Assembly: GCA_965364955.1 (NCBI GenBank)
Contig: CBDTZS010000001.1
Span: 5,324-69,323 of the forward strand
Length of the DNA: 64,000 bases
Source of the DNA: an uncultured Tenacibaculum sp.
GTDB taxonomy: Bacteria; Bacteroidota; Bacteroidia; Flavobacteriales; Flavobacteriaceae
Reading direction: 5' to 3'
Below are positions 1-9,392 of this stretch, piece after piece. Under the pieces are notes generated by a model, which did no database searches, was not told where the DNA came from, and saw only the letters and a program-made list of their open reading frames with translations. Numbering within the stretch: position 1 is the stretch's first letter; the number at the start of each line of letters is the position of its first letter. Position numbers and translations under genes: made by a program.

Positions 1-380
1 TTTTTGTGATAGAGATTATATACATTCTGAGGAATTTTATCATCGGTTATTTTATGTAACTCAAGGATTTCTTTCACCTGTTTCAGTGAATATTTATCAT
101 CTTCTTTTGTAGAATGATATATTATTAAACCTGATAATGTAGCAGTAACTATTCCTGCAATAGAGTTAATCATCGCAGTTTGATATTTTGGTGCAATTCT
201 TATTCTAAAACTACCCATCTCAGGAGGTGAAACTTCAATAATTAAATCCTCTGAACTGTAACCATACTCTTGATTAATTTGATATAATACTTTTTTGTAG
301 TTATTTAAAAACTCAGTTAAAGTATCGATATTAATGTTTCCATCTCCACCAAATCTAATAGTTAATTCTTTATCGTGCAT
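1..380 (-). CDS. hypothetical protein, N-terminal fragment (gene continues past the left edge of the window)
   Basis: I translated the minus strand myself. ATG at 380-378, then an open frame down to position 3 (MHDKELTIRFGGDGNINIDTLTEFLNNYKKVLYQINQEYGYSSEDLIIEVSPPEMGSFRIRI...). Absent from the ORF track because it is incomplete. No family recognised. Confidence 0.45.
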   Translation of the reverse strand, partial: MHDKELTIRFGGDGNINIDTLTEFLNNYKKVLYQINQEYGYSSEDLIIEVSPPEMGSFRIRIAPKYQTAMINSIAGIVTATLSGLIIYHSTKEDDKYSLKQVKEILELHKITDDKIPQNVYNLYHK

Positions 381-542
381 TTTTCCTTTTTTTTAGCTTA
401 TTGCCAACGTTCTAGTATAAGAATAGTAGCGGATTTTTATGCACTAACTTTCCGGTTTGACACAGACCTTTTTTATATTTACTTACTTTCGGTTTAGCGG
501 TTAAACCGCTATTATTTTTATACATTGTTGCCAATAGTATTT

Positions 543-2195
543 TTATATTATATCTAACTTTTTTCTGTATAAAGGTGGTATTTCAAATTTTTGTTTATCT
601 ATTTCTTTGCAAAAACCTAAGAGCTTTAAATATTTCAATAAATTATCAAATGTGTCTTTAGGCATGTCAAACTTGTTCATATTTATATCTCCATATTTAA
701 AAAAACTACGATGATATGAAATGGAGTTTATTTCTTTAAACAATGTTTGAAAATCTTTAGTTTTCACTAATACTAGAACGTTTTTTAACGATTCGTTTTG
801 AATTTTATCGTAAGTTGATGCATAGCTTGCTTGATGGAACAGATTATCGTAAAATAAATTGTTCTGATAGTCAAATGAAGGAGTAACGTATTCTATACTT
901 TCATTTTCGTAACAATATTGTTGTATATGTAAATTTTCAAATTCAATTAATTGATTGAAAAAATCTATGATTAACCTTGGATTAACAAAACCGTTGGCGT
1001 CTTTTAAATATTCAAAAATCCAATCTACGAAAGGTATGCTTTCACCTTCGAAAATTTCAATTTCTTTTGGGAAAAACATAGTTAAATATTTTTCAGAGAT
1101 ACGATAGTTGTATGCTTGTTTTTCTTTTAAAAGTTTGATTTTTTGTGTTTGTTTTGAAGAACAAAACTCCACAAATTTTCTGAGATATGTTTTTGGTGTA
1201 GATTTTTCTTTTTTGATAACTTTATCATTTTTCATAAAGTGAATCAGAAAAGGATTAAAGGTGTCTTTTATATATTTATTACTGCTAAATCGGTAAAGAA
1301 TAAAATTTAATGTTTCCCCTTTAGTCCATTTTAATTCAATTGTACGGTCTTTTATTTTGTCTACTTCAATGTCGGAATCGTATGAATAAAAAAGGTCAGT
1401 CCTTAGAAATAATGTTGGATGAATATTGTCAAGTAGACTAATTTCTTCTATTGAATCAAAAAGTCCTTGTATGTATTTCTTTTGAAGAGCATACTTTTCT
1501 TTTTGTACAAAGTTATCTATCCTGTCAATTAAAATTAATGCTTTAATATCATTCTCCTTGTAAAAAGTATTAATTCTCTTAAAGAGGTCATTTAAAACTA
1601 TTTTTTCATTTTTTTTAGTGAATTTTATAGTAGGTGTTACTTCAAATTCTTGTCCGTTTGCTGTGAAGTTTATAGAAGTTTTTAACGAGTTTAATAAATC
1701 ATTAAGATTATACAGGTTAAATTTTTCTTTAAATTCATTTATTTTCGAAATTTCTGAAATGAATTGATTATAATTGGGTTTCTCAGAAAAATTATTCTTT
1801 ATATCTAGTATTAATTTTGATAAAATAAAAAGTCCCCAAGAAATAGTCAATTTCATTCTGCTTTTTTCTTCAAAATCTTCAATATTTAAATATTCGTCAT
1901 CAAAACCGAAAGCATCATTTATTGAGATTATTGAGTATTTATCGAAATCAAATTGTGAATTATCTAAATATTTTTTTTCAAGAGTTCTAAATAAAGCACT
2001 TTTACCCGCACCTTTAGGAGATAAAATATAATTTATAGGTTCGTTTAGGTATTTCTGTATAGTATTTGTCGGAAAAAAACATGCTTCTAATTTGGGATCT
2101 CTTTCACCTTCTAGTTTACCGAAATTTATTGTTTTTAATTTAGATAAATTAAATTCAGTATTTAGTTTATCACTTAGCTGTTTGTTTTCTGTCAT
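543..2195 (-). CDS. P-loop NTPase of unknown function (defence-island-type ATPase, possibly Sll1717-like family)
   Basis: 550-aa ORF. Walker A is SPKGAGKSA (aa 59-67). Walker B-like ALILIDRID (aa 219-227) is followed by LFLRTDLF. The roughly 300-aa C-terminal region has no domain I recognise. The family name is from memory only. Confidence 0.7.
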   Translation of the reverse strand: MTENKQLSDKLNTEFNLSKLKTINFGKLEGERDPKLEACFFPTNTIQKYLNEPINYILSPKGAGKSALFRTLEKKYLDNSQFDFDKYSIISINDAFGFDDEYLNIEDFEEKSRMKLTISWGLFILSKLILDIKNNFSEKPNYNQFISEISKINEFKEKFNLYNLNDLLNSLKTSINFTANGQEFEVTPTIKFTKKNEKIVLNDLFKRINTFYKENDIKALILIDRIDNFVQKEKYALQKKYIQGLFDSIEEISLLDNIHPTLFLRTDLFYSYDSDIEVDKIKDRTIELKWTKGETLNFILYRFSSNKYIKDTFNPFLIHFMKNDKVIKKEKSTPKTYLRKFVEFCSSKQTQKIKLLKEKQAYNYRISEKYLTMFFPKEIEIFEGESIPFVDWIFEYLKDANGFVNPRLIIDFFNQLIEFENLHIQQYCYENESIEYVTPSFDYQNNLFYDNLFHQASYASTYDKIQNESLKNVLVLVKTKDFQTLFKEINSISYHRSFFKYGDINMNKFDMPKDTFDNLLKYLKLLGFCKEIDKQKFEIPPLYRKKLDII

Positions 2196-2302
2196 TTCTA
2201 TATTATTGGCAACTCGTTATATGTGGAATAAAGTTCTCGTTTATCGATTTATACACCCGGATAAAAGGAGCTGTATGATAATTTATCTTTTTCTTCTTAA
2301 TA

Positions 2303-2322
2303 GCCAAATCAAAAGATTTGGC
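2303..2322 (-). terminator. hairpin downstream of the TIR-like gene (possible weak terminator of the SLATT-TIR operon)
   Basis: GCCAAATC-AAAA-GATTTGGC forms a perfect 8-bp stem. On the minus strand only a weak T-rich tail follows (TATTAAG). Confidence 0.3.
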
Positions 2323-2406
2323 GGACTTCGTAAATATGCCTAGGCTTTAGGTTAAGTACCAAAACCCGTATTAATTATAGCTATTGTTAGCATTTCGTTA
2401 TTTTGA

Positions 2407-2829
2407 TTATATTGAATTTCTACGAATCGCTGAAACAATTGAATTTGTGTTCCAACTAACCATTTCTCTAGCATTATTTTGTACAATTAATGGAACTCTT
2501 TCTTGCCCCCAAGGTCTCACTCCGATAATTGGTTTATTATAACTATTAGCAAGTTGAATTTCTTTTTCAATCCATTCGCTATGTGCTACATACATTCCTG
2601 CTAGAATAATCACACAATTAACAGGTCTTACTTGTTGGTCTAATTTGTTTGTTAAAGTTCTTTTACCTACAGATGAATTAGGGTCAATTATAGGATTGTG
2701 AACTGGTACACTATAGTTTCTCCAAGTAAATAATGGAGCATTTTTAAGCATTTCTTCTAGTCTGTAATAGTCGGAATTGTATTTCCAAGCGTGACTTAAG
2801 AATAAGTCATAAATTTTTAAATTTGGCAT
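2407..2829 (-). CDS. TIR-like domain protein (ThsB / MTH538 / DUF1863 type), single-domain
   Basis: 140 aa. Motifs seen: YDLFLSHAW (beta-1), CVIILAGMY, SEWIEKEIQLA (conserved WxxxE Glu), KPIIGVRPWG and VSWNTNSIVSAI. The pattern matches stand-alone bacterial TIR-like proteins. Confidence 0.8.
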   Translation of the reverse strand: MPNLKIYDLFLSHAWKYNSDYYRLEEMLKNAPLFTWRNYSVPVHNPIIDPNSSVGKRTLTNKLDQQVRPVNCVIILAGMYVAHSEWIEKEIQLANSYNKPIIGVRPWGQERVPLIVQNNAREMVSWNTNSIVSAIRRNSI

Positions 2830-2832
2830 AGT

Positions 2833-3258
2833 TTAATCTTCTTTGTTAATATACTGACTCCAAGCAGAATTTTCTTTACTAATTAAGTTTTCAATTCTAC
2901 TTACAAAAAATTTAAAAGGTTCAGATTCACCGTCATAAGGTCCAGCACCAGTTTTGAATAAATATCTTTCGTGTTTTAATGTTTCTGAAGTTGTTCTGTA
3001 TTCATTCCATTTTTCTTGAAATTTCAAAAGTGCTGATAGTCCAGTGAAAATTGCAGTTAGAACTCCTAAAACAGCAATTATATAATTTAACCAAACTGTT
3101 TTTTCAGAATTGAATCCAGCAGCAAAAGGTATTAATGCAGCAAATACAATTACAAGTCCTTTTGTCCATAGATGGTAATTTTTATTTGTGGCACTTTTTT
3201 TTCCGTACCATTCTATTTGGTCGTCAACTCTTTCTTTTATATATTCTTCTTCTGTCAT
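2833..3258 (-). CDS. SLATT / DUF4231-type two-transmembrane protein
   Basis: 141 aa. N-terminal helix DDQIEWYGKKS, then two adjacent TM helices (aa ~33-49 and ~56-78), then KFQEKWNEYRTTSETLKHERYLFKTGAGPY, which is typical of this family. Its stop lies 3 nt upstream of the TIR-like ATG. Confidence 0.8.
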   Translation of the reverse strand: MTEEEYIKERVDDQIEWYGKKSATNKNYHLWTKGLVIVFAALIPFAAGFNSEKTVWLNYIIAVLGVLTAIFTGLSALLKFQEKWNEYRTTSETLKHERYLFKTGAGPYDGESEPFKFFVSRIENLISKENSAWSQYINKED

Positions 3259-3352
3259 TTTATTTAATGAATTCCAACGATCTTGAGTATGAAACGTAGC
3301 GTCTAAAAAGACACCAACTTTAGAGCCGAATTTTTATGTTTTATACAGCTTG

Positions 3353-3624
3353 TTATTTTCCGCTATTAATTAAAAATAGAGATAAGGATTCATTGCTAAT
3401 ATTTGTTTTCTTAAGTGGTTTAAATTTCGCGCACTTCTTGAAGGACTTAAAAGGCTCCATTTTGGTCATTTTAGGACAAGTATTTTTATTAAAACCATTT
3501 TTTTTACCACTTAAATTCCTTCTTCATAACAACCTAAATGCTTTCCGTTGAATCCATAGATTAGATTTTTTGAATCTAAATATGCAATTGGCTTTCCATT
3601 TGGGTTAAAAAGAGTTTCTTCCAT
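3353..3624 (-). pseudogene. small frame-disrupted gene downstream of the HNH gene (possibly a 4-fold beta-flower-like repeat protein)
   Basis: I translated this myself. ATG at 3624 gives 37 aa (MEETLFNPNGKPIAYLDSKNLIYGFNGKHLGCYEEGI) ending at TAA 3513-3511. A second frame continues from 3523 to TAA 3355-3353 (..NLSGKKNGFNKNTCPKMTKMEPFKSFKKCAKFKPLKKTNISNESLSLF..). An A8 run sits at 3498-3505. The family guess is from memory and is weak. Confidence 0.3.
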
Positions 3625-3629
3625 GATAT

Positions 3630-3926
3630 TTATTTTGTTGTATTTTCTGTACCATTAGAAGTTGTTGAACAAACTAACCTTCCATTAGATTTAGATAAAT
3701 TATTTTCCCAATGTAATGGTCGTAAATTTGATAGGATATCTTTTCCTCCATTAGAAACTGGTGTTATGTGGTCAATTTCCCAACCATACATTGAACTTCT
3801 GTTTCCATACTGATTTCTGGCTATCCAAGCTCCACATTGGTCTTTTCTGAATTCACTTGGTTTATTGTTTTGTACGGTTTTTGCTTTCTTCCATACTTCT
3901 TCTATAATTTCGTCTGTAAATGCCAT
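3630..3926 (-). CDS. small HNH endonuclease
   Basis: 98 aa. HNH core is GWEIDHITPVSNGGKDILSNLRPLHWENNLSK (D52-H53, N67, H72, N75/76). Confidence 0.8.
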   Translation of the reverse strand: MAFTDEIIEEVWKKAKTVQNNKPSEFRKDQCGAWIARNQYGNRSSMYGWEIDHITPVSNGGKDILSNLRPLHWENNLSKSNGRLVCSTTSNGTENTTK

Positions 3927-3957
3927 ATCGTTTTTTTATTTAATAACAGCTAACTTG

Positions 3958-3973
3958 TTTGTATGCATACAAA
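3958..3973. promoter_or_regulatory. perfect 16-bp palindrome upstream of the HNH gene (candidate operator)
   Basis: TTTGTATG|CATACAAA lies 32-47 nt upstream of the HNH ATG (3926). A near-miss -7 box (TACCTTTTG on the minus strand) is adjacent. Confidence 0.35.
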
Positions 3974-4202
3974 AGGTACTGTTATACACCTAGTATAGGT
4001 ATGTAATCAACGTCCTATTTTGCAGTTTTTAAAAGTATATATAAAAAGTGTATGATCTTTACGGATAACCATAACAGAAGTAAAATAAATCCGTAAAATT
4101 TATTACAAATGTGGTTTAATAACAAAGTAGTATCTAAAAAAATAACACAACAGTTGGTTATGTAAGTATAGGAGATGGTAATATTGGTGTAAGCGAAAGA
4201 AT

Positions 4203-5540
4203 TTAACTCATAATAGTAACTCCTGATATTGCGGTGTTTAATTTAATTTCCTCTTTTTTATTATTCATAAATTCAAAAGAAATGGCATTCAGTAAGTTTT
4301 CTTCTTTGGTGGTAAGATGAAATTTATAATCAATTTTAGGTGTGCTGTTCGGTGTCAGTTTTTTTAAGTGGTTGGCAATATCATGTATATCATATTGGTA
4401 ATGCCATGTTAGCGTTTGCCCTTTGTTATTTAGTACGGTATAATATAACACAACAATTGGTGCATGTGTTTTGGGGAGTGCTTTTCCTTTAAAATAACGT
4501 TTGTTTAAAAAATAACGCTCTCCGTTAGCGGAAATAGCTGCAACCGAAACAATTTTATTGGTTAAACCAGTAATACTATGCTTAATGGTGATTTGCTGTT
4601 TTCTAAGAAAAGCTAAGTCTGCATCAAGGGCTTCATTTAGTTCAATTTTAGTATTATGTTTTAGCTCCTTTTTATTGACTATTTTTAACGATGAGCTAGA
4701 CAATTCTTCCTTCGTAATAGGAGTGCAAGTTCCTTCAAAAAAGGTGACATCGTTTTTACTATTTCCTACTTGTAAAGTAAATGCGCCTTTGGTAAATAAT
4801 ACGAGGTTTAGATGGTTGTATTTTTGTTGCCTTGTAATAGGAAAGAACATACCCATTCCTAGTAATTTTCGTAGTGCTTGTTTTTTAAATTGAAACTGCC
4901 CTTTATATAATTGTTGTTCTTTTTTTGCGTAGTAAGTTATTTCTAAACCTTGTGGCATCCCAACATATTGCGGTTCTTGATTTTCCCAGTACTTATTTTT
5001 AGTAGCTACTCGTTTTTTATCAAACAGATCTGGTTTGTTATAAAATCGATTGGTTAACAGTTGAGGTTTTGGGTTTTTAGTACCTATTACATCAATCGAA
5101 ATAATACTAGCATCAAGATTTTCTTCTTCAAGTACATAAGCTTTCCATAAATATTGATTCCAATATTTTACATAGAGAACTAGCAATAAGATTGCAGAGA
5201 AAAAGAGGGTACTATTAATTGGGGTTAACAACCCCTGTTTTTGTAACGGAATAAGAACACCGTAGTTAATGGCATACCCAACTAAAAACGGAGCGACACA
5301 AAAAATAAGGCAACAGATAAGAAAGTTTACAGGGTCGTATTGTTTTCCCCAACTTAATAAAATGCCTCCTAAAAACGACAAACCAATTCCTATAACAGCA
5401 TAGATAACTAATAGTATGGTTAAGTAGTTTGCGTTTGCAAAACTTAGGGTGATAAGTATTACAAGCATTATTAATGTACTAATACCTGTAAATATGCGAC
5501 CTATTTCTGAATCCATTAAATGTAATAAAATTGTTTTCAA
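4203..5540 (-). CDS. multi-pass membrane protein with large C-terminal soluble domain, unknown function
   Basis: 445-aa ORF. Four or five hydrophobic helices fall in the first ~125 aa, followed by a ~320-aa hydrophilic region. The track start at 5540 is TTG. An in-frame ATG at 5516 (MDSEIGRIF) is an alternative start. Confidence 0.6.
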   Translation of the reverse strand: MKTILLHLMDSEIGRIFTGISTLIMLVILITLSFANANYLTILLVIYAVIGIGLSFLGGILLSWGKQYDPVNFLICCLIFCVAPFLVGYAINYGVLIPLQKQGLLTPINSTLFFSAILLLVLYVKYWNQYLWKAYVLEEENLDASIISIDVIGTKNPKPQLLTNRFYNKPDLFDKKRVATKNKYWENQEPQYVGMPQGLEITYYAKKEQQLYKGQFQFKKQALRKLLGMGMFFPITRQQKYNHLNLVLFTKGAFTLQVGNSKNDVTFFEGTCTPITKEELSSSSLKIVNKKELKHNTKIELNEALDADLAFLRKQQITIKHSITGLTNKIVSVAAISANGERYFLNKRYFKGKALPKTHAPIVVLYYTVLNNKGQTLTWHYQYDIHDIANHLKKLTPNSTPKIDYKFHLTTKEENLLNAISFEFMNNKKEEIKLNTAISGVTIMS

Positions 5541-5866
5541 ATATATCTTATTCCGTTTTAAAAGCCTTGTTTGTTTCTGAGCTAAATAAAAAAACTTCTC
5601 ATAATTGAGAAGCTTTTTTTATTCATAGATATTAGGCTATAGCATTTTATGTTTATATAAAGCTTCCTTTTCATTTCTTCAGATTAAGAGGGTTTCATCC
5701 ATTTAAAATTAAGAACGGTACATCTTGTCTTTTTAAAAATAGACAGAATACCCCAAAACGTCTATTTAAACCCCAAGTACTTCTATTTCATTTTAAGCCC
5801 CGCTTTGTTTTATCCACATTTGGGGTGTTAATAACAAAAGCAAAGGCTTTAATAAACGAATACATT

Positions 5867-6634
5867 ATGAGAAAATCAATATTTATAACAGGCATACTAT
5901 TGTTAATGGTATCTATATCATCTACAGCACAAAATTTTCAAGGAAAAATATATTATAGTTCTAAATCGAAAGTTCATTCGGTACATAACATGGATAGATT
6001 TACAGAAGAACAAAGGGCAGCTACCAAGAAAGGACAGCATGAAGCTTCGGTAAAGAAATATGTGCTAGAATTTAATAAAAACCACTCTTTATTCACCAAA
6101 GATATTAAGTTAAGTCTACTTCCAACTCGGCCAATGAGATCTGGAGGAGGTATGAATTTAATTAATAGTCCCGGGAATTTCTACAAAGATTTAGTAACTA
6201 AAAGTTATGTGAATCAAAAAGATATTTTCGGTAAAAAATTTATAATTAAAGATACATTAGAAACTATAGCTTGGCAAAAAACAGATGAGGTAAAGACCAT
6301 TGGTACATATGTTTGTTTTAAAGCTACGGCTCAAGTTGCCAATACAAATAAATATGATGATGACGCTAACCAAGGTGAAACAATTACTGTTGTTGCTTGG
6401 TATACTATCGATATTCCTGTGTCTCAAGGGCCAGGGAGCTACTGGGGTTTACCAGGATTGATCTTAGAAGTGCACTCTGAAGAGGTGGTGTATCTCTGTT
6501 CGAAAATTGAACTTTCTAAAACCGATGATATTGTGATTACAGCACCTAATGCAGGAAAGAAGATTACGAATAAAAAGTTCAACAGCTTATTTGCCCAAAA
6601 ACTACAAGATTTAAAAGATAGACATGCGAACTAA
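5867..6634 (+). CDS. GLPGLI family protein (secreted)
   Basis: Carries the family signature WGLPGLILE and a signal peptide MRKSIFITGILLLMVSISSTAQ. I moved the start from the GTG at 5825 to the ATG at 5867. Confidence 0.8.
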   Translation: MRKSIFITGILLLMVSISSTAQNFQGKIYYSSKSKVHSVHNMDRFTEEQRAATKKGQHEASVKKYVLEFNKNHSLFTKDIKLSLLPTRPMRSGGGMNLINSPGNFYKDLVTKSYVNQKDIFGKKFIIKDTLETIAWQKTDEVKTIGTYVCFKATAQVANTNKYDDDANQGETITVVAWYTIDIPVSQGPGSYWGLPGLILEVHSEEVVYLCSKIELSKTDDIVITAPNAGKKITNKKFNSLFAQKLQDLKDRHAN

Positions 6635-6668
6635 ATTCTGGTATTAAGAGCTAAACTAATTTATAATT

Positions 6669-9392
6669 ATGGGGTATATAAAAAAGAAACAAGGAGTTTT
6701 TATCTTTTTGTTTATGTGTACACTAAGTATTTTTTCGCAAGAAATAAAACTCAGTGGTATTGTAAAAGATAGTCTTGGTAATACCTTAGAATCGGCAAAT
6801 ATAATTGCCTTAGATAACGTGACTAATAAGTTAAAATCGTACGCTATTACCAATTCAAAAGGAGAGTATCAGGTATTATTAAATCAGGAAAAGGACTATA
6901 CGGTAAAAGTTAGTTTTATTGGATTTAAACCTATTTCCTTTGAGCTAAATCAAACCGTAGGTGAAGGGGGTTTAATTAAGAATTTTACGCTTTATGAGGA
7001 TAATAGTCAATTAGATGAAGTGTTACTGACTTATGAAATGCCTATAACTGTGAACAACGATACCATTGTTTATAATTCGGATTCTTTTAAAACCGGTGGA
7101 GAAAAAAAACTGCGCGATATTTTAAAAAATTTACCAGGCGTAGAAATAAATGACGATGGCCAAATTGAAGTTGAAGGAAAACAGGTATTGAAAGTGATGA
7201 TAGAAGGAAAAGATTTTTTTGATGGGGATTCAAAAATAGCTGCTGAAAAAATTCCTTCTAATGCTGTTGATAAGATCGAGATATTAAAAAACTTTAGTGA
7301 AATTAGTCAATTAAAAGGAGTCACTAATAACGCCGATAACATCGTTATTAATTTAAAACTAAAAGAAGGTAAAAAGAACTTTTGGTTTGGTGATATTACT
7401 GCGGGTGGAGGTTTTGAAGATCGCTATCTAGTGCATCCAAAGTTGTTTTATTATAGCCCTAAGAAAAGTATTAATATCATTATGGATATTAATAATATTG
7501 GGGAGATTCCATTTACGTCTAAAGACTATTATAACTTTACAGGAGGCTTGAGTAAATCTTTTATGAACTCTGGGACGTTATTTAATATAGCATCTGATTT
7601 GGGATTGTCTCATTTAAAAAATAATAAAGCAAAAGCAGTTGTATCTAAATTTGGAGCGGTAAATTTTAGCTATGCAGCTAGTGAAAAATGGGATTTAAGT
7701 GGCTTTTTTATTTTTTCTAAAAGCGAAGTCGATCTTCTTGAAAAGTCGGTAACACAGTACACCGTAGATAATTTAATAGAACAAAACGAAAAAGTAACCT
7801 TTCAGGATAATACGTTAGGATTAGCGAAATTCAGTAGTTCTTTTAAACCGCATTCGAATTTTCAGTTTGATTATGATTTGTTTATAAAATTATCGAAACA
7901 AGATGAAACCAATGGTTTAGTTTCAAGTTTTTCTGATGTTGAGAATGAGATTTTAACCAAAATGAACAATGATCCATTTTCAATAAAACAAAACGCTAAA
8001 ATATATTATACACTTAACCCTGATAATATATTCGCAACTAGCATACAATATGAGTTGTCAAAAGAAAATCCATTTTACAATGCTTCTTTTTTAGATTTGG
8101 GTGTTAATCCGTCAACTACGGCATTGCCCTTTTCGGGTATATTTCCGTACGATTTAAATCAAGATGATTATACGATTAACCAAGACAAATCGATTCACAC
8201 CAATAAATTGGATGCTAAAGTTGATTATTATTACTTACTGAACGACAAGAGTAATTTAAATTTCAATGTAGGAAGTACTTTAAGTAGCCAGAAATTTAAT
8301 TCATCTATATTTCAAACCCTAGACGATGGAAGTATTGAAAATTTTACCGATCAGAGATTTAGGAACCAAGACGTAACGTATAATTTTACGGATGCATTTC
8401 TCGGACTTCATTATAAATTAGCTCTAGGGAAATTTCTGTTTAACCCAGGTATTAGTCTACATAACTATACGTTGAAAAATGAACAATTGGGAAGTGTTTT
8501 ATCTTCTAATGAAACGAAAGTGTTGCCTAGTTTTTATGTGAATCTTCAATTTCAAAAATCTGAAAGCTTGCGTTTTACCTATTCAAGAACAGCAGCGTAT
8601 TCAGATATCAATAAAATAGCAGAAGGCTATATTTTTAATAATTACAATTCACTATTTCAGGGGAATAGGGCTATAGAAAACGGTTTGTATGATAAATTTA
8701 AACTCAGCTATTTTAGTTTTAGCTTATTTAATTACACCAATGTTTACGCGTCTTTAGCTTATTCTAAAAAGAAGGATGATATAAAAAACAATACTGTTTT
8801 TAACCAAATTAATACGGCGTCTACACCTATAAATTCATTACTTGATGATGAAACATTTTCTGCAAATGCGAGTTGGGGCAAAACGATTGGTAAGTATAAA
8901 GTAAACTTAAAAATGAATCTAGAACAAGCAAATTATTATAATATTATTAATGATGTACAGCAAAAATCGAAAGCATTCATTCAAAATTATACGGCCAGTA
9001 TACTCACTAAATATAAAAAGGCACCGAACTTCGAAATTGGGTATACACGTACCATCAATAACTATAATAATGCAAACACCGAAACGACATTTTATACAGA
9101 TAAACCGTTTGCGAATGTAAAGGCTAAATTTTTAAAGCATTTTTCTTTAAAATCACAATATAGCTTCTATAAGTATCAAAATAAAAACCAGTCTCTTAAT
9201 AGCTATTCCTTTTTGGATGCCAATTTATATTATCAACACGAAGACAGTAATTGGGAGTATAGCTTAGGTTTAACTAATATCTTGAATACTGAATCTTTAA
9301 ATCAAGATAAATTTAATCAGAATTATGCGAGCTCGTCGCAATACTTTATTCAACCACGCTATGCTGTGTTTAGTCTTAAATACAATCTATAA
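6669..9392 (+). CDS. outer-membrane beta-barrel protein with N-terminal carboxypeptidase-regulatory-like domain (TonB-dependent-receptor-like)
   Basis: 907 aa with a signal peptide. The CarboxypepD_reg-like segment is KLSGIVKDSLGNTLESANIIALD...YTVKVSFIGFKP, followed by a plug-like region and a long region of alternating beta-strand pattern. The C-terminus ends FSLKYNL. Confidence 0.75.
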   Translation: MGYIKKKQGVFIFLFMCTLSIFSQEIKLSGIVKDSLGNTLESANIIALDNVTNKLKSYAITNSKGEYQVLLNQEKDYTVKVSFIGFKPISFELNQTVGEGGLIKNFTLYEDNSQLDEVLLTYEMPITVNNDTIVYNSDSFKTGGEKKLRDILKNLPGVEINDDGQIEVEGKQVLKVMIEGKDFFDGDSKIAAEKIPSNAVDKIEILKNFSEISQLKGVTNNADNIVINLKLKEGKKNFWFGDITAGGGFEDRYLVHPKLFYYSPKKSINIIMDINNIGEIPFTSKDYYNFTGGLSKSFMNSGTLFNIASDLGLSHLKNNKAKAVVSKFGAVNFSYAASEKWDLSGFFIFSKSEVDLLEKSVTQYTVDNLIEQNEKVTFQDNTLGLAKFSSSFKPHSNFQFDYDLFIKLSKQDETNGLVSSFSDVENEILTKMNNDPFSIKQNAKIYYTLNPDNIFATSIQYELSKENPFYNASFLDLGVNPSTTALPFSGIFPYDLNQDDYTINQDKSIHTNKLDAKVDYYYLLNDKSNLNFNVGSTLSSQKFNSSIFQTLDDGSIENFTDQRFRNQDVTYNFTDAFLGLHYKLALGKFLFNPGISLHNYTLKNEQLGSVLSSNETKVLPSFYVNLQFQKSESLRFTYSRTAAYSDINKIAEGYIFNNYNSLFQGNRAIENGLYDKFKLSYFSFSLFNYTNVYASLAYSKKKDDIKNNTVFNQINTASTPINSLLDDETFSANASWGKTIGKYKVNLKMNLEQANYYNIINDVQQKSKAFIQNYTASILTKYKKAPNFEIGYTRTINNYNNANTETTFYTDKPFANVKAKFLKHFSLKSQYSFYKYQNKNQSLNSYSFLDANLYYQHEDSNWEYSLGLTNILNTESLNQDKFNQNYASSSQYFIQPRYAVFSLKYNL

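Follow-up and report, generated by a model that had tools for sequence, protein, structure and literature searches.

A two-gene SLATT-TIR cassette in an uncultured Tenacibaculum sp. as a probable type VII Thoeris-like module

The stretch of DNA analyzed here (the window, 64,000 nucleotides of contig CBDTZS010000001.1 from an uncultured Tenacibaculum sp.) carries on its minus strand a pair of short genes, the first encoding a membrane protein of the SLATT family and the second a stand-alone TIR protein (Table 1). A first-pass annotation, made from the sequence alone, had described two minus-strand open reading frames (ORFs) of 141 and 140 amino acids (aa) with a 3-nt gap, and both the ORF list and a reading of the sequence agree with it: the junction is GAT TAA act ATG, with the SLATT stop codon at 2835-2833, the spacer at 2832-2830 and the TIR start codon at 2829-2827. 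The peptide motifs quoted in the annotation were all found in the two products. Domain scans also bore out its statement that the cassette is without a SMODS, SLOG, SIR2, Macro or STING partner; SIR2, SLOG and Macro profiles gave no match in the pair or in the three neighboring proteins, and profile scans for a CD-NTase (SMODS) or a pyrimidine cyclase found none in the cassette or the adjacent genes.

Table 1. Features of the SLATT-TIR locus and its surroundings, in positions of the window (TM, transmembrane; AF2, AlphaFold2; MFE, minimum free energy).
Feature	Position	Strand	Description
SLATT gene, thsH-like effector	2833..3258	minus	141-aa product with a single SLATT_1/DUF4231 domain
thsB gene	2407..2829	minus	140-aa stand-alone TIR of the ThsB/MTH538 type
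Intergenic spacer, SLATT stop to TIR start	2830..2832	minus	3 nt, read off the sequence; one operon
SLATT TM helix 1	3112..3162	minus	residues ~33-49, continuous with the N-terminal cytoplasmic helix; hydropathy, AF2 helix 3-47
SLATT TM helix 2	3025..3093	minus	residues ~56-78; AF2 helix 56-78, hydropathy peak at residues 53-63
Glu90 codon, predicted catalytic Glu of the TIR	2560..2562	minus	last Glu of SEWIEKE
Two-gene cassette, extent of nucleotide homology	~2311..3278	minus	blastn against related loci
Hairpin GCCAAATCTTTTGATTTGGC ending the conserved tail	2303..2322	minus	present in the MFE fold; kept in L123 and L124
P-loop ATPase, Sll1717 family, 550 aa	543-2195	minus	NF047389, 2.7e-34; also PADLOC candidate PDC-M28C, 1.3e-10
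Stand-alone HNH-domain protein, 98 aa	3630-3926	minus	PF01844, 1.4e-07
445-aa protein with multi-TM N-terminal region	4203-5540	minus	matches no family
Gene beginning MHDKELTIRFGGDGNINIDTL...	1-~380	minus	runs past the left end of the window

The TIR-like and SLATT assignments of the annotation were substantiated by profile searches, with scores well above the curated cutoffs. For the 141-aa product these were DUF4231 (PF14015, 2.6e-27, 95.7 bits, cutoff 24.7) and SLATT_1 (PF18181, 2.2e-13, 50.8 bits, cutoff 26.3) of Pfam and SLATT_1 of NCBIfam (NF033634, 3.6e-38, 130.5 bits, cutoff 41). The AF2 model of the protein (predicted local distance difference test score, pLDDT, 92.6) consists of four helices spanning residues 3-47, 56-78, 80-103 and 114-138. 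Combined with the hydropathy profile it predicts a layout in which helix 3-47 runs from a cytoplasmic N-terminus into the first TM segment (TM1), followed by a short external loop, TM2 and two cytoplasmic helices. As the profile cutoffs are passed and the layout of helix, two-TM hairpin and cytoplasmic helices is present, the protein is a member of SLATT_1/DUF4231. TM2 is followed by the conserved cytoplasmic motif K-x4-W-x2-YR-x3-E-x-LKHE, and the residues invariant within the family are I43 and P44 in TM1 and W84, Y87, R88, E92 and E97 after TM2. Close homologs of the same length number 511, and the single-SLATT family comprises 398 clusters (50% identity) at E<=1e-30 and 3,208 at E<=1e-10; among the top matches almost all single SLATTs have 138-195 aa. 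Ten longer family members were inspected as fusions that might reveal SLATT partners, and they carry SLATT domains only, without a TIR or sensor domain. A search of PDB structures with the model returned generic helical bundles only (E > 0.1), and phmmer of the PDB with the sequence gave no match.

The 140-aa product matched ThsB_TIR of Pfam (PF08937, 3.8e-16, 59.7 bits, cutoff 21.2). The PADLOC run that had been proposed in the annotation was successful for the TIR, which is matched by ThsB models (PDLC00418, 2.5e-13), and gave nothing for the SLATT protein, which no PADLOC v2 model recognizes. At the level of the predicted structure the TIR fold was confirmed, with an AF2 model of pLDDT 86 for which Foldseek matched MTH538, the SARM1 TIR, a B. 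cereus TIR, EcThsB and the ThsB-Tad3 complex. The position proposed earlier for the catalytic Glu, E90, also held: Glu90 is invariant in an alignment of 11 sequences (A1) that includes validated ThsBs of Thoeris types IV, VII and VIII as well as in a second one of 54 sequences (A3), and its counterpart in EcThsB (8wcf) is the Glu of the WVKYEI motif. Homologs with the length of the window's TIR number 580.

For the limits of the cassette, positions 1-9000 of the window were compared by blastn with the related loci L123-L126 and L086-L089. Homology of 85-88% identity covers about 970-1010 nt and ends ~20 nt upstream of SLATT and ~96 nt downstream of the TIR gene, and the flanks are unrelated. 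Because it is confined to both genes, ~20 nt upstream and a tail of ~100 nt, the functional and mobile unit is, judged by this homology, a cassette of exactly two genes. The non-coding tail (2303-2406, minus strand, past the TIR stop) is shared with the related cassettes. It ends in the hairpin GCCAAATCTTTTGATTTGGC, which in L124 has a 29-nt insertion in its loop and which could terminate transcription or mark a boundary at which the cassette recombines. In the metagenomic contigs L124-L126, whose proteins are 93-94% identical, the 3-nt spacer is retained.

The conservation of the gene pair was surveyed in 185,579 species-representative genomes, in which 532 relatives of the TIR were found; the best 80 loci were classified, a gene within 600 nt of the TIR being taken as its partner. 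In these 80 loci the partner is 8xMP (PF24838) in 29, a single SLATT in 22, a TPR-S protein (type VIII-like) in 10 and a tandem SLATT in two, and 17 have another or no partner. Nine of the loci have a TIR identity of at least 63%, seven of them with a single SLATT upstream and two with TPR-S. The junction between SLATT and TIR measures -4 to +12 nt in six of the seven SLATT-first loci, and the remaining one has a gap of 122 nt; junctions of -4 to +12 nt are found in L001-L004, L007 and L015. The pairing of SLATT and TIR is more than chance, because it is seen again, with such a junction, in the closest relatives, and the co-occurrence check suggested in the annotation thereby turned out in its favor. 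The nearest named organism with homologs is Tenacibaculum maritimum. A search seeded with the SLATT protein added one SLATT-then-TIR locus beside an integrase (P0061), one TIR-then-SLATT locus with a TIR of a different clade (P0120) and one SLATT alone with a TIR_2 protein 1.5 kb away (P0101).

The commonest pairing in this TIR clade is the one with 8xMP, and it is abundant in metagenome-assembled genomes of Chloroflexota (Dehalococcoidia). The 8xMP partner (L020, L025, L034, L040 and others) is a three-TM protein of ~160 aa, annotated in PF24838 as 'octameric membrane protein', and its gene usually overlaps the TIR stop by 4 nt. Pfam 8xMP appears to be the '3TM' putative effector which was listed but not tested by Yirmiya et al., whose work is described below.

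TIR and SLATT have been connected before. In 2022, Iyer, Burroughs and Aravind described conserved TIR + 2TM-SLATT neighborhoods in Firmicute phages and predicted SLATT as a membrane effector under the control of ADP-ribose (ADPR) derivatives (PMC9503650). Shaseng, a system of SLATT and two TIRs (SasA/SasB) presented in a December 2024 preprint, protects against T4 and T6, and a TIR-dead mutant abolishes its defense (bioRxiv 10.1101/2024.12.27.630466). On 3 December 2025, Yirmiya et al. defined type VII Thoeris as ThsB (TIR) plus ThsH (SLATT) (bioRxiv 10.64898/2025.12.03.692087). The view of the annotation that the two-small-gene architecture had not been validated is therefore outdated, although for the exact form with a single SLATT a validation is probable rather than certain. 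According to the latter preprint, three of six cloned type VII systems defended; on infection only, the TIRs of these three made canonical cyclic ADP-ribose (cADPR). Exogenous cADPR, and not 2'cADPR or 3'cADPR, killed cells carrying type VII, and the defense was unaffected by Tad1 and MoTad2. In an AlphaFold3 model ThsH spans the membrane as a homo-hexamer, and the pockets between its protomers are basic. Both ThsH and ThsI (the TPR-S effector) respond to cADPR, and operons containing the two are rare. The preprint also names SLATT as an effector in CBASS, and its introduction gives at least five different signals for the known Thoeris types. A 2026 preprint that uses type VII as a cADPR reporter found that unrelated cADPR-making TIRs, including human TLR4, trigger toxicity, so that the link between TIR and SLATT is a diffusible molecule.

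The domain identities, the operon coupling, the cassette limits and the homologies of TIR and SLATT are observed directly at this locus, and they agree with type VII: in the window a stand-alone ThsB-type TIR with its Glu and an adjacent SLATT membrane effector are encoded by an operon of two genes with conserved synteny, and the TIR is homologous to a validated ThsB. Among the sequences of Table S1 of Yirmiya et al., it resembles members of cluster 2734565194. It is 34% identical over the full length (E 2e-26) to the validated type VII ThsB of P. nitratireducens SCS-111 and 35-36% identical to validated type VIII ThsBs; to the other two validated type VII ThsBs, which belong to other TIR clades, it has no significant similarity. 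For SLATT_1 the homology to ThsH lies in the C-terminal half of the latter (E 2e-9 to 3e-5). The host is a Tenacibaculum-like member of Bacteroidota, a phylum that the paper does not name for type VII; the rows covered of its Tables S1 and S3 contain no type VII entry from Bacteroidota.

The validated loci were represented by proxies, namely orthologs with a 90% identical TIR for P. nitratireducens, relatives with 95% identity for the Alteromonadales system, and, for B. licheniformis SCCB 37, the prophage L135 (IMG/VR) and Staphylococcus phage SN10 (MF428480). Both SN10 and L135 have TIRs of the Bacillus/Staphylococcus clade, in the cluster of B. licheniformis SCCB 37; for L135 the TIR identity is 45% with the validated entry of B. 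licheniformis SCCB 37 and 72% with that of B. nitratireducens. Single SLATTs pair with three TIR clades, one of them the window's own, each of which contains a validated cADPR producer; the clades have about 20-27% mutual identity or are not detectably similar. In the Alteromonadales clade, L131 combines a TIR 73% identical to the validated ThsB with a SLATT 53% identical to the window's. The SLATT of SN10 is 45% (E 3e-34) and that of L135 39% (E 3e-30) identical to the window's protein, and the SLATTs of the window, L131, SN10 and L135 have the same conserved polar residues. In SN10 and L135, as in the window, the gene of a single SLATT (~145 aa) comes immediately before that of a ThsB-type TIR (~135-144 aa), which it overlaps or adjoins, and all SLATT motifs are in common; these two pairs differ in the TIR clade, which has no significant similarity to the window's, and in being carried by temperate phages, where they lie next to an integrase and an ImmA-like peptidase. 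These alignments suggest that the third validated system, that of B. licheniformis SCCB 37, is probably a single-SLATT, SLATT-first pair like that of the window, so that the architecture would already be a validated one. With its 3,208 clusters at E<=1e-10, the single-domain SLATT is a widespread effector, and it is exchanged among at least three TIR clades. Judged by its domains, L107 (Ga0209487_1003379, 2048-4760), which encodes a 144-aa single SLATT, an Alteromonadales-clade TIR (71%) and a 420-aa TPR-S protein (ThsI-like), is a dual-effector Thoeris of the kind reported as rare ThsH+ThsI operons.

Taken together, the pair is likely to be a type VII Thoeris-like abortive-infection module in which a signal made by the TIR, most likely N1-cADPR, activates SLATT; the model of a TIR signal generator and a SLATT membrane effector put forward in the annotation is thus supported. 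In the proposed mechanism the stand-alone ThsB-type TIR would be inactive without infection. Upon phage infection it would use Glu90 to convert nicotinamide adenine dinucleotide (NAD+) into a cyclic ADPR signal, most likely canonical N1-cADPR, which would diffuse to the ThsH-like SLATT protein in the inner membrane. For this locus the nature of the signal, its site of binding and a pore made of oligomers are inferred. Binding would probably take place in inter-protomer pockets of the conserved cytoplasmic helices, with R10, Q14, W17 and Y18 of the N-terminal helix, W84, Y87, R88, E92, H96 and E97 after TM2 and E123, E129 and W133 of the C-terminal helix as putative pocket residues. Oligomerization or opening of the two-TM hairpins would then breach the membrane and halt growth before phage progeny is released.

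Several points weigh against this assignment, and the first concerns the form of the effector. Orthologs of the ThsH proteins of P. nitratireducens and Alteromonadales are tandem SLATT_3+SLATT_1 proteins of 288-305 aa encoded downstream of the TIR; the two reconstructed ThsH thus have ~290 aa and four TM helices and follow the TIR, whereas the window's effector has 141 aa and two TM helices and precedes it. Only the C-terminal half of these tandem proteins can be aligned with the window's SLATT, at an identity of 27-28% (E 3e-5 to 2e-9). Phage defense, phage-dependent cADPR synthesis and cADPR-specific toxicity are, moreover, taken from the literature on relatives, none of which belongs to Bacteroidota. 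Finally, the TIR is nearer to the type IV ThsB of E. coli 328, a producer of N7-cADPR (46% identity), and to a TIR paired with the '3TM' effector (58%) than to the cADPR producers (34-36%).

The last point bears on the signal. The logic from TIR to SLATT could be the same and the signal different from canonical cADPR, for example N7-cADPR or another ADPR-derived isomer or conjugate to which SLATT is tuned, and besides the identities just given the free exchange of effectors within this TIR clade, in which 8xMP, single SLATT, TPR-S and tandem SLATT all occur, and the variety of Thoeris signals would fit such a case. We regard it as unlikely, given that single SLATTs with the same conserved polar residues are found beside TIRs of the B. 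licheniformis cluster and, in L131 and L107, beside TIRs that have 71-73% identity to a validated cADPR producer, that the SLATT of L107 shares its locus with a ThsI-like TPR-S effector of the cADPR-responsive class, and that the three validated type VII systems all use canonical cADPR despite their unrelated TIRs. With an N7-cADPR-producing type IV ThsB nearer to the window's TIR than the cADPR producers are, TIR similarity does not fix the signal. Canonical cADPR nevertheless seems a fairly probable signal and the likeliest one, because it is the signal of all validated type VII systems and because SLATTs with the same conserved residues occur next to TIRs closely related to proven producers and in the same locus as ThsI-like effectors.

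The alignment of the effectors also allows a view on how the two forms of ThsH are related. Single SLATTs share one full set of motifs, which in the tandem ThsH is divided between the two halves: the motifs of the N- and C-terminal helices are retained in the C-terminal half, and the W..R...E..K after TM2 in the N-terminal half. Because of this complementarity the tandem ThsH may be a duplicated and sub-functionalized version of the single SLATT. A more far-reaching and rather doubtful proposal is that the single 141-aa SLATT represents a minimal ancestral ThsH, a complete cyclic ADPR receptor and pore of about 140 residues acting as a homo-oligomer, maybe with a non-canonical signal in this Bacteroidota lineage, given that its TIR is nearer to the N7-cADPR type IV ThsB and to TIRs associated with 8xMP. 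Each pair of protomers would then be equivalent to one tandem ThsH.

The remaining points against the assignment to an active type VII module concern the question whether every copy of the cassette works. In T. maritimum (L086, CP137730.1, 8668-9994; L087-L089) the TIR is intact and 90% identical to the window's, and of the SLATT gene only codons 105-141 are left, adjoining an element of the IS3 family of insertion sequences (HTH_Tnp_1 orfA and orfB fragments). In L123 (~1741-2160) the SLATT start codon ATG is replaced by CTG and no gene is called. These cases show that not every copy is functional, and they suggest that a toxic effector was repeatedly lost while the TIR was kept. Three of the six type VII systems cloned by Yirmiya et al. 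were without defense, and no convincing promoter was found for the cassette in a sigma-70 scan and a look-up of the -7 motif. The sigma-70 scan gave no enrichment (5 found, 7.8 expected), its model being one that does not apply to Bacteroidota, and a Bacteroidota -7-like motif with one mismatch, TACGTTTC, lies 32 nt upstream of the ATG as weak evidence. One could therefore think of a decaying or silent cassette, or of a toxin-antitoxin-like addiction module of a mobile element, that is inactive here. This seems most improbable: both ORFs of the window are intact and contain every family-invariant residue including E90, the 3-nt coupling is conserved, and 85-88% nucleotide identity with both frames open in L124-L126 fits continued selection.

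The annotation had offered a membrane-tethered NADase as an alternative, and this can now be considered disfavored. In its general form, the TIR would be an effector that depletes NAD+, and SLATT its anchor, sensor or activator acting by direct protein contact. Some bacterial TIRs in CBASS, Pycsar, prokaryotic Argonaute and Avs contexts do deplete NAD+, the 141-aa SLATT has no recognizable separate ligand-sensor domain, and T. maritimum keeps an intact TIR with its SLATT destroyed. The window's TIR is, however, a bare 140-aa protein of the ThsB type, without sensor or tether, and falls among the signal-producing ThsBs of its cluster. The strongest argument for a shared and diffusible small-molecule ligand, and against co-evolved protein contacts or a specific docking interface, is that SLATTs of one family occur with three dissimilar TIR clades, in either gene order; the published reporter experiments are consistent with it. 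In type VII, cADPR that is added externally or derives from foreign TIRs suffices for toxicity, and SLATT is the effector in DRT10 as it is in CBASS. A NAD+-depleting TIR is accordingly rated as very unlikely here.

Further named systems resemble the window's pair in part. Shaseng likewise combines a SLATT membrane protein with TIR and lacks a SLOG or Macro sensor domain; it differs in having two TIR genes and in its repression by an adjacent CRISPR-Cas system (crlRNA). In the window a single TIR ORF lies beside SLATT and no cas genes were seen among the neighbors scanned, CRISPR arrays not being part of the search. The closest genome relative, L001 (JAKLJL010000003.1, 5573-6824; TIR 74% identical), has a second, unrelated TIR gene of 127 aa located 17 nt after the SLATT-TIR pair, and with SLATT and two TIRs it resembles the arrangement of Shaseng. 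Type I Thoeris (ThsB with the SIR2-SLOG protein ThsA) and type II Thoeris (Macro-2TM, His-ADPR) also consist of a TIR signal generator and a killing effector activated by the signal, and the type II effector targets the membrane, too. The window pair differs from both by the absence of Macro, SLOG and SIR2 and by its predicted ligand. The SLATT effectors of CBASS and DRT10/UG17 belong to the same superfamily of predicted pore-forming proteins with two TM helices, but to other subfamilies (SLATT_5 in DRT10), and act downstream of a CD-NTase or of cDNA made by a reverse transcriptase, neither of which accompanies the window's pair.

The cassette is surrounded by genes encoding an ATPase, an HNH protein and a 445-aa protein, all on the same strand as the Thoeris genes, and it may have been inserted between the HNH and ATPase genes. 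The annotation had listed the former two neighbors as a P-loop NTPase and an HNH nuclease in a defense-island-like context; this context is weakened as evidence, neither of them being a conserved partner of the pair. As components of the system both were ruled out, since homology stops outside the pair and the neighbors differ in every related locus. The Sll1717-family ATPase is probably a separate defense-type gene and not a partner of TIR and SLATT; it sits in a stretch of lower G+C content (25-26% vs. about 30%). The island-like variable region extends beyond the window, as the gene at its left end is cut off by the window border.

The likely affiliation of the locus is with type VII Thoeris, a family previously described and validated, of which it would be a representative from Bacteroidota and whose SLATT-first form with a single SLATT was noted in 2022. 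The conceptual gain is little, as signaling from TIR to SLATT had been predicted, named and validated previously. What the analysis adds is a probable type VII Thoeris in the form of a mobile cassette, sharply limited to two genes, among marine Flavobacteriaceae related to T. maritimum, a pathogen of fish, and to our knowledge there is no experimental study of Thoeris in the marine Flavobacteriaceae around this species. The 141-aa protein, whose fold is predicted with very high confidence, would be a convenient minimal target for studies of cyclic ADPR binding and membrane breach, the PDB containing no solved SLATT. If the single SLATT were indeed a minimal ThsH responding to another signal, this would constitute a new pairing of signal and effector in Thoeris and the smallest nucleotide-gated membrane effector known.

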